Of a stretch of 32,000 nucleotides of DNA, positions 9,617 to 21,158 are shown one piece after another. How positions within the stretch are numbered: the first letter of the stretch is position 1; each line of letters starts with the position of its first letter. A model generated the notes under the pieces. The model saw nothing but the letters and a program-made list of their open reading frames with translations, ran no database searches and was not told the origin of the DNA. Source of the DNA: Candidatus Heimdallarchaeota archaeon. Lineage in GTDB: Archaea; Asgardarchaeota; Heimdallarchaeia; JABLTI01. Location: positions 1 through 32,000 of the forward strand of contig JAUWKS010000031.1 of the NCBI GenBank assembly GCA_030614005.1. Reading direction: 5' to 3'. The position numbers and the translations under genes were made by a program.

Positions 9617-9787
9617 TTTATAACCTCTGAGATAGTTAGTTCAAAGATGTTTACAATGCTTTATACAGTTTGACTATTTAATTGTTTTAGTTTTGAGGCA
9701 AAAGGCATATTTACTTGTCAAACTTTATAACAAATAGTTACTTGTTTAATTATTGATGGAATAAGATAAATTTAACTGATTAGTTAG

Positions 9788-11248
9788 GTGAACAAAATGG
9801 ACTTTGAGGTTGTTTATAATAAGAAAAGTGCTGAGTTTGATAAAACAAAATTAGCTAAAAAATTGATAGCTATTTTTGGAGAAGCGAATGTTTCACAAAA
9901 AGAAATTGATATTCTTTCCTACAGTAAAGATTTCATATTATTATCTGCTCGGTGGACACTAGATGGCAAAGTAGCTGCCAAACCGGACTTTATAGTTTGG
10001 CCAACTTCTGCAAAACAGATCAGTGACTTGCTTATATTAGCAAATAAAGTAAAAGTGCCCATTGTTCCTTTTGGTGCTGGGAGTGGTGTTGTAGGTGGAG
10101 CGTTACCAATTTTAGGTGGCGTTATTGTTGATATGAAAAAAATGGATAAATTGTTAGAAATCAACGATCAAAACTTGACAGCAACCATCCAAACTGGTAA
10201 GAATGGAATGAATATTGAAAGAGATTTGAATAATAAAGGATATACCCTCGGGCATATCCCGCAAAGTATTTTTACTTCAACATTGGGTGGTTACCTTGCC
10301 CACAAAGCAGCAGGACAGTTTAGCACAAAATACGGAAAAATAGAAGATATGATCATTAGCTTTGAAGCAGTTCTTCCCACTGGTGAAATTATTAAATCAA
10401 AAGCTGCCCCAAGAACTTCTGTAGGACCTCAAGTAGATAAATTACTAATTGGTTCAGAAGGGACTTTAGCAATTATAACAGAAGCTACTGTAAGAATTTG
10501 GCCTCAACCTGAGAAAAGAGCATTGGTCTCTTTTGCTTTTGAAAAAATGGAAGATGCCCTGAATTCAGTCAGGGAGATTTTGCGAAAACAAGTATATCCA
10601 GCAGTAGTGCGTATTTATGATAGTGATGAAACTGAAAGACATTTTGGTAGCGAGAAAAACTACAAAGATCGATGTATGACCATTTTTGTATGCGAAGGTG
10701 ATACAGATGTTGTTGCACTCGAAGAAAAAGTCACAAAACAAATTTGCCTGAAAAACTTTGGCATTGATTGTGGGGAAGCACCTGTCGAGCATTGGTTTGA
10801 AACTCGATTCAATGTAAGTGAAATCTCAAAATACACTCCTATTGGTGTAATCGTTGATACTATTGAAGTAGCAATTATGTGGGATGGTGCTGCGAATCTC
10901 TATTATGAAACAATTAAAGCAATGAAGAAGGTACCTGGTGTTGTTACAGCAACGGGATATGTATCTCATGCTTATCCACAAGGTGTGGGATTTTATTTCT
11001 CTTTTAGTGGTGTCCCTGATAAACAAAGTCCTGAGGGTTTCTCAAAAGCAGTTTGGGATATAACTATGGAATCAACAGTAAAGTCTGGAGGTTCAATAGC
11101 ACATCACCATGGAGTAGGTGTTGTTCGATCAGCATGGATGGAAGCCGAATGGGGAAGTATTATGCCCTTATTGAAGAAAATTAAGAAAGCCTTGGATCCA
11201 AAGAATATCCTTAATCCTGGGAAATTATATGATGGACCAATTGAATAA
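9788..11248 (+). CDS. FAD-binding oxidoreductase of the VAO/GlcD family, alkyl-dihydroxyacetonephosphate synthase (ADAPS/AGPS)-like
   Basis: PFGAGSGVVGG FAD loop, GHIPQS...STLGG, KYGKIEDM, GSEGTLAIIT, SHAY, IAHHHGVG and DPKNILNPGK. Likely start is the ATG at 9797 after a GGTGA RBS. Confidence 0.85.
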   Translation: MNKMDFEVVYNKKSAEFDKTKLAKKLIAIFGEANVSQKEIDILSYSKDFILLSARWTLDGKVAAKPDFIVWPTSAKQISDLLILANKVKVPIVPFGAGSGVVGGALPILGGVIVDMKKMDKLLEINDQNLTATIQTGKNGMNIERDLNNKGYTLGHIPQSIFTSTLGGYLAHKAAGQFSTKYGKIEDMIISFEAVLPTGEIIKSKAAPRTSVGPQVDKLLIGSEGTLAIITEATVRIWPQPEKRALVSFAFEKMEDALNSVREILRKQVYPAVVRIYDSDETERHFGSEKNYKDRCMTIFVCEGDTDVVALEEKVTKQICLKNFGIDCGEAPVEHWFETRFNVSEISKYTPIGVIVDTIEVAIMWDGAANLYYETIKAMKKVPGVVTATGYVSHAYPQGVGFYFSFSGVPDKQSPEGFSKAVWDITMESTVKSGGSIAHHHGVGVVRSAWMEAEWGSIMPLLKKIKKALDPKNILNPGKLYDGPIE

Positions 11249-11260
11249 AGGTGAAAGTGG

Positions 11261-12520
11261 ATGTCTCTTATTAAAAAGCTAAAAAAGTACGGCTGGATAG
11301 TTAAAGCAATCGCCCAGACGAAATTTTCCACAAAGAGAACTATGGCAAAAGGATTAAGAAACAAGAAAAACTATTTTCCGAAAAAAAAGGTAAAAGCTGA
11401 TGTTCAAAATCTGATGAATTGTGCTCTTTGTCCAAATATGTGTCGATTCGATTGCCCGACCGTTCAAGCTTCGAAAAAAGAAACACATTCACCTGCAATG
11501 AAAGCCAAGATTGGTTATTATCTCGAGATGGACTATTTAGAAAAGGTGGATGAGAACATCATACCACTTTTTGAAGGATGTGTTCATTGTTCGGGATGCA
11601 AAATTTGGTGCCCATTTGATTTTGCTGTAGGAGATCTGCTTGATGGCGTTGCTGCAGATTTATTTGAACAAGACGTTCTGCCACAACCAATCAAAAACTT
11701 CTCTCAAAGAATTAGAGACAATAATGGATTGTATAAAAAAGAACATTACATTTCAGCAACGAAAACCCTGGAAGCATTCAAAGAAGGCGACATTTACTAT
11801 TTTCCAGGTTGTGTGACAATGGGAAATAATGCAAAAGTAATTGAGAGTATCAAAATTATTGCTGAAAAATCTTCTAGCTCAATAATTGCAAAACCAGAAG
11901 AACGATGGTGTTGTGGCGCACCTTCAATATATGCTGGGGATGTTGATAAAGCAAAAGAATTAGCTTCACATAATTCTGAACATATTAAGTCATTAGATAT
12001 AAAAGCTATCATTTGTGAATGTCCAGAATGTACTCATATGTTGAAAGAACAATATCCTCAACTGGGTTTTGATCTAAAAATTCCTGTTTATCATGTTGCT
12101 GAATGGGTGAATATTCTACTTAAGGAGAAAAAAATAGCACTTAAGAATGGCGAAGAATTGGTGGACTATAAAGATAGTTTACCAATTAGCTTCCATGATC
12201 CCTGTGTTTTAGCAAGAAAATTGGATGTAGCTGAACAACCAACAGAAATCATGAAGCTTATGTTTCCAGAGAAATTCAAAGAGAATGCTTATTCAAAAGA
12301 AAACACTCATTGTTGTGGATTTGGTGGTCTGGTGAATATCGTTAATCCTGATTTAGCTCTGAAAATGGCAAAAAACCGTTTGGACGAGTTCTCGCAAGAT
12401 AATATTAAAACAATTGTGACTAGCTGCCCAACTTGTTGGTATAGTTTTATGAAAGCAAATGAGAATTTTGAGTTCGAAATTCGCGATTTACTTGAAATAA
12501 TTGCAGAATTAATAGAATAA
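11261..12520 (+). CDS. (Fe-S)-binding protein, GlpC/GlcF/HdrD-like (4Fe-4S dicluster + two CCG domains)
   Basis: CALCPNMCRFDCP and CVHCSGCKIWCP; YFPGC, WCCG, CPEC; FHDPC, HCCG, SCPTC. Lies 12 bp after the upstream stop, so probably co-transcribed. Confidence 0.9.
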   Translation: MSLIKKLKKYGWIVKAIAQTKFSTKRTMAKGLRNKKNYFPKKKVKADVQNLMNCALCPNMCRFDCPTVQASKKETHSPAMKAKIGYYLEMDYLEKVDENIIPLFEGCVHCSGCKIWCPFDFAVGDLLDGVAADLFEQDVLPQPIKNFSQRIRDNNGLYKKEHYISATKTLEAFKEGDIYYFPGCVTMGNNAKVIESIKIIAEKSSSSIIAKPEERWCCGAPSIYAGDVDKAKELASHNSEHIKSLDIKAIICECPECTHMLKEQYPQLGFDLKIPVYHVAEWVNILLKEKKIALKNGEELVDYKDSLPISFHDPCVLARKLDVAEQPTEIMKLMFPEKFKENAYSKENTHCCGFGGLVNIVNPDLALKMAKNRLDEFSQDNIKTIVTSCPTCWYSFMKANENFEFEIRDLLEIIAELIE

Positions 12521-12548: not shown

Positions 12549-13628
12549 TTAATCTTTGTTTTTAATAAAATGATCTTCCCATCTACGTAGGAGTAACACT
12601 TTCTTGTTTTCATAGTCAATAAAATTATTTTCTTCAAGCCATTTAACGGAATCTTTGACAACCTGCTTGCTATCAGTGTATTTTGGTTTCCAGTTCAATT
12701 CATTTTGTAATTTTGTTGTGTCAACTACACGAGTGTTTCCATAACGCATTACGCGATGTCTGGTCAAAGTTGCTTTTCCTTTCCCTTTAATTTTTGCTGA
12801 TACTTCTTTTGTCCATGCATAGAACATCGCAAACCATTTGGGAAAGGTAGGAATTTTGACATCAGAGTAACCAATTGCATTCATATGAGTAATCCAATAA
12901 TCCTTCTGTGAAATATCGAAGCTTTTCACATTATATACGCTACCATTACCTTCTTTCTTTATACCCATAGTAATTATTGCACGGGCTGCATCTCTCACCT
13001 GAACACTTGAGAAAAGATTCTTGCCATTTCCAATGAATTTTACTTTTCCATCAAAAAATGCTTGAATAACTCTAGGAGTAGTCAGCGTATCTCCAGGCCC
13101 GAGTATCATTGGAAGTCTAGCAACTGCAACCGGAACATTGTGTTGTTGATGATATTTCCAAACAATTTCTTCTGCATCTACTTTTGATTTATGATAATCT
13201 GTTGTAGGGTTGAATGGTTGATCTTCAGTCATTGGTTTAGCTTTTACCTTGTATCCATAGACACCCCATGTGCTCACAAATACGAACTTCTTAGCTTCTT
13301 TTTCCTTAGAAAAAGCATCAAGAAGTGCTTCTGTACCGAGAACGTTTACTTCGTGCAATAATTCAGGTGGAGATTGATCAAGGACAACAGCTCCTAAATG
13401 AAAAATAACTGATTTATTTTTTACTGCTTTCTTCAGAGTGTCGGGTTTTTTGAGGTCACCAATAATAAATTGAACACCTAATTTTTTCAGCTGATCAATA
13501 TTACTTTCTTCTCGAACAAGAACAAAAATATCTTTTTTATCTATACCCCATTCTTTTTGATTTTGAATTAATTCTTCTACTAAATTTCCTCCAACATACC
13601 CTGTTCCACCTGTGATTAATATTGCCAT
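12549..13628 (-). CDS. Extended SDR, NAD-dependent epimerase/dehydratase (3-beta-HSD-like)
   Basis: ITGGTGYVG Rossmann motif, FVST, YHKSK (YxxxK), ILGPGD. Confidence 0.88.
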   Translation of the reverse strand: MAILITGGTGYVGGNLVEELIQNQKEWGIDKKDIFVLVREESNIDQLKKLGVQFIIGDLKKPDTLKKAVKNKSVIFHLGAVVLDQSPPELLHEVNVLGTEALLDAFSKEKEAKKFVFVSTWGVYGYKVKAKPMTEDQPFNPTTDYHKSKVDAEEIVWKYHQQHNVPVAVARLPMILGPGDTLTTPRVIQAFFDGKVKFIGNGKNLFSSVQVRDAARAIITMGIKKEGNGSVYNVKSFDISQKDYWITHMNAIGYSDVKIPTFPKWFAMFYAWTKEVSAKIKGKGKATLTRHRVMRYGNTRVVDTTKLQNELNWKPKYTDSKQVVKDSVKWLEENNFIDYENKKVLLLRRWEDHFIKNKD

Positions 13629-19883: not shown

Positions 19884-21158
19884 TTGCTACGGGAACTAAA
19901 TGAGCTGGAATACATTGGTTATGCATTAGGCCAACCTTTCAATGTTGCAGTGATGCTCAAACTTCAAGGTCAAATATCAGCTGATTTGTTAGTTTCAACA
20001 CTATCCAAACTTCAGAAGAGGCACCCATTATTACAGACTAGAATTATTTTCGATGATAAACAGCGCCCTTGGCTAACTTCTGAAGGAGTTGGTTCAATTC
20101 CAGTAACAATTATAGCTCGAGAGAATGAGTCTCAAGGTATAGATGAACTAAACAGACAACTAGCAACTTCTTTTGATCTTGAAAATGAAGAATTGCCATT
20201 AGCGAGAGTTATTTTATTTTCATCACCTGAAAGATCTGAATTGATCATTTGTGCTCTTCATATCATAACAGACGGAATGTCTATGACTCATTTTATTAAA
20301 GACTTTGTAAAATACATGGCGAATCCAGATGAACCAATAATACCATTAGAATTACCAACTAAGGATATTAATCCATTAACAAAGAAAGTATTAAGAATAA
20401 TTCCGAAATCAAAATTGTCTGTATATGTGATTTATGCTTTTTTAAGAATCTACAATTTTACTAGGTATCTATTTACAGGTAGAAGAAAAACAGCTAAATT
20501 CAACATACAAGAAAAAGACATGGCAGTCTATTCTTGTCAATTTAATCAAAAACAAACACAAGAATTCTTAGAGAGAAGCAAAAAGGAAAAAGTTTCTATT
20601 CATAGCTCTTTATGTACAGCGTTTTTATCTGAATATCCAATAATAGCTACTACAGTAAACCTTAGAAAAAGATTAAGACATAAAATAGGAGAGTCATTTG
20701 GTTTTTACTCAAGTGTTATTGTTTTTAATAAAAGATATAATAAATCTCAAGGTTTTTGGAGCAATGCTCGTAAGTTTCAAAGAAAATTGCGCTGGAATTT
20801 ACGAGATAGAAAGGTGTATCTAATTCACAGACTCCTTCTAAAGAAAGCTTCATTTAAGTTTCTACAAAAAATAAGCACATATTATACTGAAATTGCTACA
20901 AATAAGAATCCTTTTTCAGTCAACAATCTTGGTTCGTTGGAAGATTTTGCTCAAACTATTGACAATGAAGATTTTATTAAAATAGATTCATTTTTTGGTG
21001 GAGTCACTAGTTTTCTCAATACATTTATTGTTCTGGTCTATACTTTTAGAAATGAAATGCATTTACATTATCACTATCCAACTGAGCTTTATTCTTTAGA
21101 TAATATAATTTCTATCTCTGAAACAGCTAAAGAAAGAATATTGAATGCACTAAAATGA
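19884..21158 (+). CDS. Condensation-domain/CoA-dependent acyltransferase (PapA5/alcohol acetyltransferase-like)
   Basis: N-terminal RELNELE, LQKRHPLLQTRI, PLARV and catalytic HIITDG (HxxxDG); C-terminal SVNNLG. Confidence 0.8.
   Translation: MLRELNELEYIGYALGQPFNVAVMLKLQGQISADLLVSTLSKLQKRHPLLQTRIIFDDKQRPWLTSEGVGSIPVTIIARENESQGIDELNRQLATSFDLENEELPLARVILFSSPERSELIICALHIITDGMSMTHFIKDFVKYMANPDEPIIPLELPTKDINPLTKKVLRIIPKSKLSVYVIYAFLRIYNFTRYLFTGRRKTAKFNIQEKDMAVYSCQFNQKQTQEFLERSKKEKVSIHSSLCTAFLSEYPIIATTVNLRKRLRHKIGESFGFYSSVIVFNKRYNKSQGFWSNARKFQRKLRWNLRDRKVYLIHRLLLKKASFKFLQKISTYYTEIATNKNPFSVNNLGSLEDFAQTIDNEDFIKIDSFFGGVTSFLNTFIVLVYTFRNEMHLHYHYPTELYSLDNIISISETAKERILNALK

Follow-up and report, generated by a model that had tools for sequence, protein, structure and literature searches.

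An AGPS-Like Flavoprotein and Its Iron-Sulfur Partner in a Heimdallarchaeal Genome: A Probable Oxidoreductase of Glycerol-Phosphate-Type Compounds

Introduction

Alkyldihydroxyacetonephosphate synthase (AGPS, also called ADPS; EC 2.5.1.26), for which structures from Dictyostelium (2uuu) and guinea pig (4bby) are available, is a stand-alone flavoprotein that acts with no net redox. Annotation pipelines also give the name "alkyldihydroxyacetonephosphate synthase" to proteins of the kind described here, and environmental studies have inferred ether-lipid capacity in bacterial and archaeal metagenome-assembled genomes (MAGs) from BLAST matches to Myxococcus xanthus Agps with E < 1e-30 and an identity of 30% or more (PMC11868695). 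One such protein is encoded in the DNA analysed here, which we call the window: 32,000 nucleotides (positions 1 to 32,000, forward strand) of contig JAUWKS010000031.1 of Candidatus Heimdallarchaeota archaeon (assembly GCA_030614005.1), corresponding to contig C114 of a 3.6-Mb MAG that is 90.4% complete. Its AGPS-like gene (AGPSL; protein P0001) is followed by a gene for an iron-sulfur (Fe-S) protein with CCG domains (P0002). We consider it probable that the pair is a flavin/Fe-S oxidoreductase whose substrate is a small glycerol-phosphate- or dihydroxyacetone phosphate (DHAP)-like compound, or a polyol or ketose phosphate.

The window protein shares with AGPS the VAO-type two-domain fold, the catalytic Arg and Tyr, and the HHH loop. 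It differs in that it appears to lack the N-terminal/gate domain peculiar to ADPS, has no equivalent of Arg447, resides in a genome in which no GNPAT-type acyltransferase was found, has relatives in operons with glycerol-3-phosphate (G3P) dehydrogenases and kinases, and is paired with a CCG Fe-S gene 12 nt downstream, which implies net electron transfer. A GlcD-fold flavoprotein and a subunit with two [4Fe-4S] and two CCG motifs constitute the likeness to GlcDEF, the Dld-II type D-lactate dehydrogenases (D-LDH) and mouse LDHD (8jdc), but the His-His-Glu metal site of these enzymes reads His-Tyr-His in the window protein, the glcD score falls below its cut-off, and the genomic context is another. 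With respect to GlpABC of Escherichia coli, the CCG protein has the domain plan of GlpC, and in Jordarchaeia the CCG gene takes the GlpC position after GlpA-GlpB. FngABC of Pyrococcus furiosus is a ferredoxin- and NAD-dependent G3P oxidoreductase, many homologues of which are thought to act on other polyols, and its description does not mention AGPS-like or CCG genes (PMC13689815). In other phyla the AGPSL-CCG pair precedes FngABC, and in Syntrophomonas-type operons the CCG protein is fused to FngA. In both of these systems, however, the substrate-binding flavoprotein is of the DAO type, whereas here it is of the VAO/AGPS type, and P0002 scores below the GlpC cut-off.

The sole relative with experimental data, limited to transcription and deletion, is the Pseudomonas aeruginosa operon PA3026-PA3023, which encodes an AGPS-like FAD oxidoreductase, a GlpD homologue, an FGGY kinase and a YegS kinase and is activated by GliR along with a phospholipase C (PMC8151288). 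This gene set recurs in many relatives of the window protein, but the partner of PA3026-type proteins is GlpD rather than a CCG protein, whereas the window pair has a CCG gene and neither kinase nor GlpD nearby. Apart from this GliR study, we found no literature linking AGPS-like genes, CCG partners and G3P dehydrogenase operons.

The Flavoprotein and Its Active Site

Two open reading frames (ORFs) on the forward strand, 9788-11248 (486 aa from GTG) and 11261-12520 (419 aa), are separated by 12 nt, as stated in a preliminary description of this DNA. The flavoprotein most likely starts at ATG 9797 rather than at GTG 9788, because the GTG falls within a Shine-Dalgarno sequence, AGGTGA (9786-9791), that stands 5 nt before the ATG; the gene would thus span 9797-11248, and this start agrees with that of P0003, a 483-aa homologue with 99% identity that begins MDFEV. 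The same hexamer recurs in the gap between the genes (11249-11254), 6 nt before ATG 11261 of the CCG gene. Residue numbers of the flavoprotein are counted here on the ORF from GTG 9788. All motifs quoted in the preliminary description are found in this first protein, namely GHIPQS (155-160), STLGG (164-168), PAVVRIYD (271-278), SHAY (393-396), FYF (402-404) and HHHGVG (439-444).

These motifs had been read as marks of the AGPS branch, and the sequence comparisons bear this out. The protein matches Pfam FAD_binding_4 (1e-35) and FAD-oxidase_C (1e-36), and when it was searched with HMMER against the sequences of all solved structures, the top match was Dictyostelium ADPS (4e-65, 224 bits), followed by guinea-pig AGPS at 1e-56, as against 1e-37 (133 bits) for D-lactate dehydrogenase and 4e-34 for LctD. 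The best NCBIfam model is glcD (TIGR00387), with a score of 217.8 that lies far below the cut-off of 567.9; NF008408 likewise scores 135 against a cut-off of 897. An AlphaFold (AF2) model built from 68 homologues (pLDDT 95, pTM 0.92) gave guinea-pig AGPS (4bby/4bca) as its top Foldseek matches (TMq 0.85-0.88, E 1e-42), with mouse LDHD at TMq 0.82 and E 1e-37. In VIA-align, the model scored Z 40.6 against guinea-pig AGPS (root-mean-square deviation 2.1, 463 residues aligned) and Z 41.4 against mouse LDHD (443 residues aligned). Because these Z values are nearly equal, the predicted fold alone does not decide between AGPS and LDHD.

Mutagenesis of Dictyostelium ADPS, as reviewed in PMC3509576, covers residues that include R352, R447 and Y508. 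Our Dictyostelium numbers are the chain count in the HMMER alignment plus 3, whereupon the three mutagenesis residues match the expected letters. R275 of the window protein aligns with the catalytic Arg (Dictyostelium R352, guinea pig R419) and is invariant in 68 family members; Y403 aligns with the catalytic Tyr (Y508 and Y578, respectively) and is at least 90% conserved among them; and H439-441 correspond to the HHH loop of AGPS, being invariant or at least 90% conserved in the same set. The second catalytic Arg, Dictyostelium R447, which mutagenesis marks as important (PMC3509576), aligns with Ser347. This position is Ser, Thr or Ile, and never Arg, in all 17 members of the window protein's own clade, and is Arg in Dictyostelium, in guinea pig and in six of six members of a prokaryotic clade of proteins of about 550 aa. 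For mouse LDHD, numbered as the chain count in the HMMER alignment plus 13, H398, H405 and E442, which we take to be the metal ligands, align with H394, Y403 and H440 of the window protein. With His replaced by Tyr403 and Glu by His440, the His-His-Glu site of 2-hydroxyacid dehydrogenases is, as judged from this alignment, absent. The placement in an AGPS-like branch, outside the GlcD and D-LDH clades, is thus supported by the replaced metal triad together with ADPS and AGPS as the closest solved relatives.

One extra domain is described as "found only in ADPS" (PMC3509576). In the predicted structure, an LDHD-type core (454 residues) covers residues 18-481; since this core accounts for the whole protein, the model indicates that the ADPS-only N-terminal/gate domain is absent. 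AGPS aligns structurally with the model only from residue 155 of the guinea-pig chain, or residue 82 of the Dictyostelium chain, onwards, and the HMMER alignment runs from residue 60 of the window protein, at Dictyostelium chain index 132.

The Iron-Sulfur Subunit and Its Conserved Association

The second gene (11261-12520, forward strand) encodes an HdrD/GlpC/GlcF-type Fe-S subunit. Pfam finds two stretches of CCG (PF02754, 5e-29) together with the 4Fe-4S dicluster matches Fer4_8 and Fer4_17; two 4Fe-4S ferredoxin Cys motifs begin at residues 54 and 107, and the CCG motifs lie at 217 and 351. The protein falls under the cut-off of every NCBIfam model of TfrB, LdhH, GlpC and GlcF. Its scores against the GlpC equivalogs are 86.6 against 278 (NF008369) and 56.1 against 279.9 (TIGR03379), which speaks against strict GlpC orthology, and it is 22% identical to E. 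coli GlpC and 23% identical to E. coli GlcF. An N-terminal extension of about 50 residues (1-53, window 11261-11420) holds 16 Lys and Arg and a single Asp or Glu, and includes a conserved K-K-Y-x-W-hydrophobic motif. It is common to the partners in Asgard archaea, Thermoplasmatota, Theionarchaea and Bathyarchaeota, and is missing from those of Dehalococcoidia, Caldisericota, Baldr- and Jordarchaea and from E. coli GlpC. One possibility is a helix that binds the membrane or a partner.

We compared 84 archaeal and bacterial loci, comprising 80 from one-genome-per-species contigs, three from assemblies, and the window. In all but two of them (82/84), a CCG gene adjoins the flavoprotein gene, mostly overlapping it or coming within about 20 nt, and it lies upstream in Jord- and Freyarchaeota. 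Natural fusions point the same way: P0127 is a single AGPSL::Fer4::2xCCG polypeptide, from a cluster with a member named "FAD-binding and (Fe-S)-binding domain-containing protein". This conserved adjacency and these fusions argue that the two proteins act together, which implies that electrons would be exchanged with the flavin.

The operons of relatives were annotated by Pfam and NCBIfam. Where the flanking DNA is long enough, the pair is in most cases part of an operon that also encodes G3P dehydrogenases (FngABC or GlpAB) and kinases of the FGGY or YegS type. Thermoplasmatota have the order AGPSL-CCG-FngA(DAO+BFD)-FngB-FngC(DUF1667)-GlpK, with a kinase that exceeds the GlpK subfamily cut-off (574 > 498); Dehalococcoidia and Caldisericota have AGPSL-CCG-FngA-FGGY-FngB-FngC; and in the Syntrophomonas type, a GntR gene and AGPSL are followed by a CCG::BON::FngA fusion, FngB, FngC and a YegS/Rv2252-family lipid kinase. 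The order is GlpA-GlpB-CCG-AGPSL in Jordarchaeia and some bacteria, AGPSL-CCG-FGGY-alpha/beta hydrolase (Hydrolase_4 family) in Lokiarchaeia, and FGGY-AGPSL-CCG in Baldrarchaeum. The pair stands alone in Heimdall-, Hermod- and Bathyarchaeal loci, including the window. Further fusions involve the flavoprotein itself. A Cof-type sugar phosphatase::AGPSL fusion is followed by FGGY and GlpD, and a fusion to a PfkB hexose/1-PFK-type kinase lies beside a Cys-less CCG-like protein, a DeoC aldolase, a cupin-type phosphoglucose isomerase, a ROK kinase and a sugar ABC transporter. The CCG-like protein of this PfkB::AGPSL operon (L113:5030-6328) is homologous to the C-terminal half of the CCG subunit, has six Cys and no CCG motif, and seems to have lost its clusters.

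Possible Functions of the Pair

The reading that we favour as probable is the oxidoreductase introduced above, in which the two genes would encode a heterodimer. Its AGPS-like subunit would hold a small phosphorylated C3-type substrate beside the FAD, by means of Arg275, Tyr403 and His439-441, the counterparts of the residues with which AGPS binds the DHAP moiety, and electrons would be exchanged between the flavin and the GlpC-like Fe-S subunit. Candidate substrates are glycerol phosphate, DHAP, or a polyol or ketose phosphate that shares the CH2OP-C(=O/OH)-C head. We infer the substrate class, the existence of net redox turnover and its direction from several observations. Net electron transfer is suggested because a CCG gene is almost always adjacent and because the AGPSL::Fer4::CCG and CCG::FngA fusions exist, the latter downstream of AGPSL. 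A triose- or polyol-phosphate substrate is suggested because the Arg, Tyr and HHH residues of AGPS are kept in the 68 family members and because the operons are of the FngABC, GlpAB, GlpK and FGGY types. A small, soluble substrate is suggested by the fusions to a PfkB kinase and a Cof-type sugar phosphatase, the former among sugar genes. One of two proposals in the preliminary description, a redox-active relative of AGPS with a DHAP- or glycerol-phosphate-type substrate, therefore fits the conserved Fe-S partner, the fusions, and the operons with G3P dehydrogenases and kinases.

Several points weigh against this view. Many operons already contain a G3P dehydrogenase, beside which the AGPS-like enzyme would have to play some further role. 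Similarly, the genome already encodes a GlpD-type G3P dehydrogenase (C49:1995-3647) and an FGGY kinase (C54) that passes the xylulokinase cut-off, so that the pair fills no obvious gap, and we rejected the notion that it replaces an absent G3P dehydrogenase. No kinase or G3P dehydrogenase gene neighbours the pair in the window, which therefore holds no module of AGPS-like protein, G3P dehydrogenase and kinase; the relationship of the window protein to the members of such modules is supported by the tree described below. YegS-type lipid kinases in some operons, including PA3023 of P. aeruginosa, hint at lipid substrates, and deletion of PA3026-PA3024 in P. aeruginosa gave no phenotype (PMC8151288). 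Lastly, the window copy has Tyr391 (codon at window 10958-10960, in TGYVSHAY) at a site that is His in 66 of 68 family members. The homologues that are 99%, 89%, 76% and 70% identical all have His, making the Tyr private to this MAG; it may reflect genuine variation or a mistake in the assembly, or it may inactivate the enzyme.

Retention of the Arg, Tyr and HHH loop, and the rank of AGPS as the best match in both sequence and Foldseek searches, would also suit a true alkyl-DHAP synthase that makes G3P-type ether lipids, in which the Fe-S subunit would keep or restore the oxidised flavin, which ADPS needs (PMC3509576), in a reducing anoxic cytoplasm. Further in its favour, the extended short-chain dehydrogenase/reductase (SDR) gene that adjoins the pair gives the strongest NAD_binding_4 match in the genome, and an epimerase/dehydratase-family gene is likewise part of the AGPS operon of M. 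xanthus. Yet this adjacency is confined to three closely related Heimdall genomes, leaving the SDR unsupported as an acyl/alkyl-DHAP reductase or fatty acyl reductase (FAR) partner. A search for PF01553 acyltransferases (GNPAT/PlsB/PlsC type) gave no match in the 90.4%-complete genome; run as a control, it was positive in 10 of 14 genomes. The Arg447 equivalent is lost throughout the clade and kept in the clade closer to ADPS, no ADPS-specific domain is visible in the model, and relatives are fused to, or share operons with, soluble sugar kinases and phosphatases. We accordingly regard ether-lipid synthesis as unlikely; the other proposal of the preliminary description, a part in non-archaeal-type ether-lipid metabolism or catabolism, is not supported. 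A catabolic reversal of AGPS is in our estimation just as doubtful. Here, a kinase and a G3P-dehydrogenase-type enzyme would turn scavenged alkyl- or acyl-glycerol into alkyl- or acyl-DHAP, from which the AGPS-like enzyme would remove the C1 chain, with water as acceptor or by reductive cleavage with Fe-S electrons, affording an oxygen-independent breakdown of glycerol ethers or esters. The operon of a kinase (FGGY or YegS lipid kinase), a G3P-dehydrogenase type and AGPSL recurs across many phyla; Hydrolase_4 alpha/beta hydrolases follow the pair in Lokiarchaeia; the homologous P. aeruginosa operon is co-regulated with phospholipase C (PMC8151288); AGPS itself cleaves the C1-O bond via a flavin adduct (PMC3509576); and the hosts are mostly anaerobes and sediment and subsurface MAGs. 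The predicted absence of the ADPS gate domain tells against it, as do the solubility of the FngABC G3P enzyme (PMC13689815), the PfkB and HAD fusions, which suggest sugar phosphates, and the lack of pathway partners near the pair in the window.

We give a similarly small chance to a related proposal, that the pair forms the centre of an oxygen-independent system which breaks or remodels the glycerol ether/ester C1-O bond at the DHAP oxidation level with AGPS-type flavin-adduct chemistry. The Fe-S subunit would then set the redox state of the flavin or give electrons for reductive cleavage, and such a system, if real, would explain ether-lipid recycling by sediment anaerobes, Asgard archaea included. 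Least probable is that the pair works as an ordinary GlcD-plus-GlcF type dehydrogenase for D-lactate, glycolate or D-2-hydroxyacids. The tie in fold with mouse LDHD, the GlcF/GlpC architecture of the partner and the rank of glcD as best NCBIfam model would accord with it, but the glcD score of 218 against 568 and the replacement of two of the three D-LDH metal ligands in the manner of AGPS (H405 by Tyr403, E442 by His440) argue that the protein is not such an enzyme; its sequence is clearly nearer to AGPS, and the operon partners of its relatives are glycerol-phosphate and sugar-phosphate genes rather than lactate or glycolate genes. What probability remains after the oxidoreductase and these alternatives is assigned to something not considered here.

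The favoured oxidoreductase would have consequences beyond this genome. The comparisons point to a large share of Agps-like matches being Fe-S-wired or G3P-dehydrogenase-linked enzymes of glycerol or sugar phosphates, and ether-lipid capacities deduced from such matches in MAGs may for that reason be wrong. The family is large and common in anaerobes, and its putative chemistry could put the AGPS active site to a new redox purpose.

Distribution and Phylogeny

Homologues at 55-70% identity are almost all from Asgard archaea, and the family extends to Thermoplasmatota (50-57%), Syntrophomonadaceae (45%), Dehalococcoidia (43%), Bathyarchaeota, Caldisericota, Thermodesulfobacteriota and others, with 1,722 clusters (at 50% identity) matching below E 1e-30. 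Within the window's class, the gene was found in only 5 of 80 sampled genomes. GlpD was found in 51 of the 80, and co-occurrence of the pair with GlpD is therefore uninformative. A tree of 133 prokaryotic rows was rooted on E. coli GlcD, YdiJ and the genome's own VAO-family protein from contig C110. It places the window protein within a clade of Asgard archaea and Bathyarchaeota (support 99), sister to Thermoplasmatota and Theionarchaea (96), with both inside a clade that contains Dehalococcoidia, Caldisericota and Syntrophomonas-type sequences (98). The Jord- and Baldrarchaeal copies are placed elsewhere, rendering the Asgard copies polyphyletic, in two separate places, where they nest among sequences of Thermoplasmatota, Dehalococcoidia and Bacillota. 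The clade of about 550 aa (P0250, P0361 and others), which is mostly bacterial, forms a separate and fully supported group.

The preliminary description had supposed that this locus would bear on the origin of eukaryotic AGPS, and here our result is negative with respect to eukaryogenesis. Searches with P0001 and P0250 returned only prokaryotic proteins among their best 120 matches, and P0292 and P0223, examined as possible eukaryote-type sequences, were rejected. Placement relative to eukaryotes was thus gauged by bit scores to the solved AGPS structures, a weaker proxy than a tree, by which two proteins of the 550-aa clade match ADPS at 347 and 401 bits over nearly their full length, as against 224 bits for the Heimdall and 211 for the Loki protein. 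In a published study on how plasmalogens arose, AGPS was found to carry too little phylogenetic signal. Given the patchy occurrence, the polyphyly and these scores, the supposed link is not supported, and the sequence comparisons point to the Asgard copy being a patchy accessory gene and not the closest relative of eukaryotic AGPS. The 550-aa clade has a context of its own. Its genes lie directly upstream of GlpD at three of five loci checked (L095, L100, L101) and beside GlpABC and GlpD at a fourth (L097), and neither FAR nor GNPAT genes stand next to them at these four loci. Even the bacterial homologues most similar to ADPS may not be ether-lipid enzymes.

Genomic Surroundings and Minor Observations

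The gene that follows the pair, convergent with it (12549-13628, minus strand), is the epimerase/dehydratase-like extended SDR mentioned above, identified by Pfam and NCBIfam; it is a neighbour whose membership in the unit is not shown. Other window neighbours, comprising a PAS/GAF hybrid kinase, an M19 dipeptidase, a KaiC-like ATPase, KsgA and HemK-like methyltransferases, have no visible link to the pair. About 7 kb away, at 19884-21158, a stand-alone protein of 424 aa matches the N-terminal part of the nonribosomal peptide synthetase Condensation domain (5.5e-19) and could be a PapA5- or wax-synthase-like acyltransferase, likewise with no link to the pair shown.

Elsewhere in the genome, a second pair of CCG and FAD_binding_4 genes (G000:C110:27463-30864; L002 1982-3118 and 583-2016, both on the minus strand) overlaps, with the CCG gene first. 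It was rejected as a paralogue, its flavoprotein being 25% identical over the FAD domain and having no solved relative below E 1e-20. How this organism builds the glycerol-phosphate backbone of its lipids is not obvious from the searches: along with PF01553, PF01884 (PcrB/geranylgeranylglyceryl phosphate synthase) had no match in the genome at 90% completeness, and matches of the GpsA and glycerol-1-phosphate dehydrogenase types were weak (25-41 bits).

Some members of the family sit oddly with their taxonomic labels. Near-identical AGPSL-[CCG::FngA]-FngB-FngC-YegS operons occur in the PRJNA951521 MAGs L042, L043 and L046, which are labelled Solirubrobacterales, Methylocystaceae and Chitinophagales, and they cluster with Syntrophomonas sequences; a "Methanophagales" copy (L089) nests within Dehalococcoidia. 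Such placements likely reflect mis-binning or very recent transfer.

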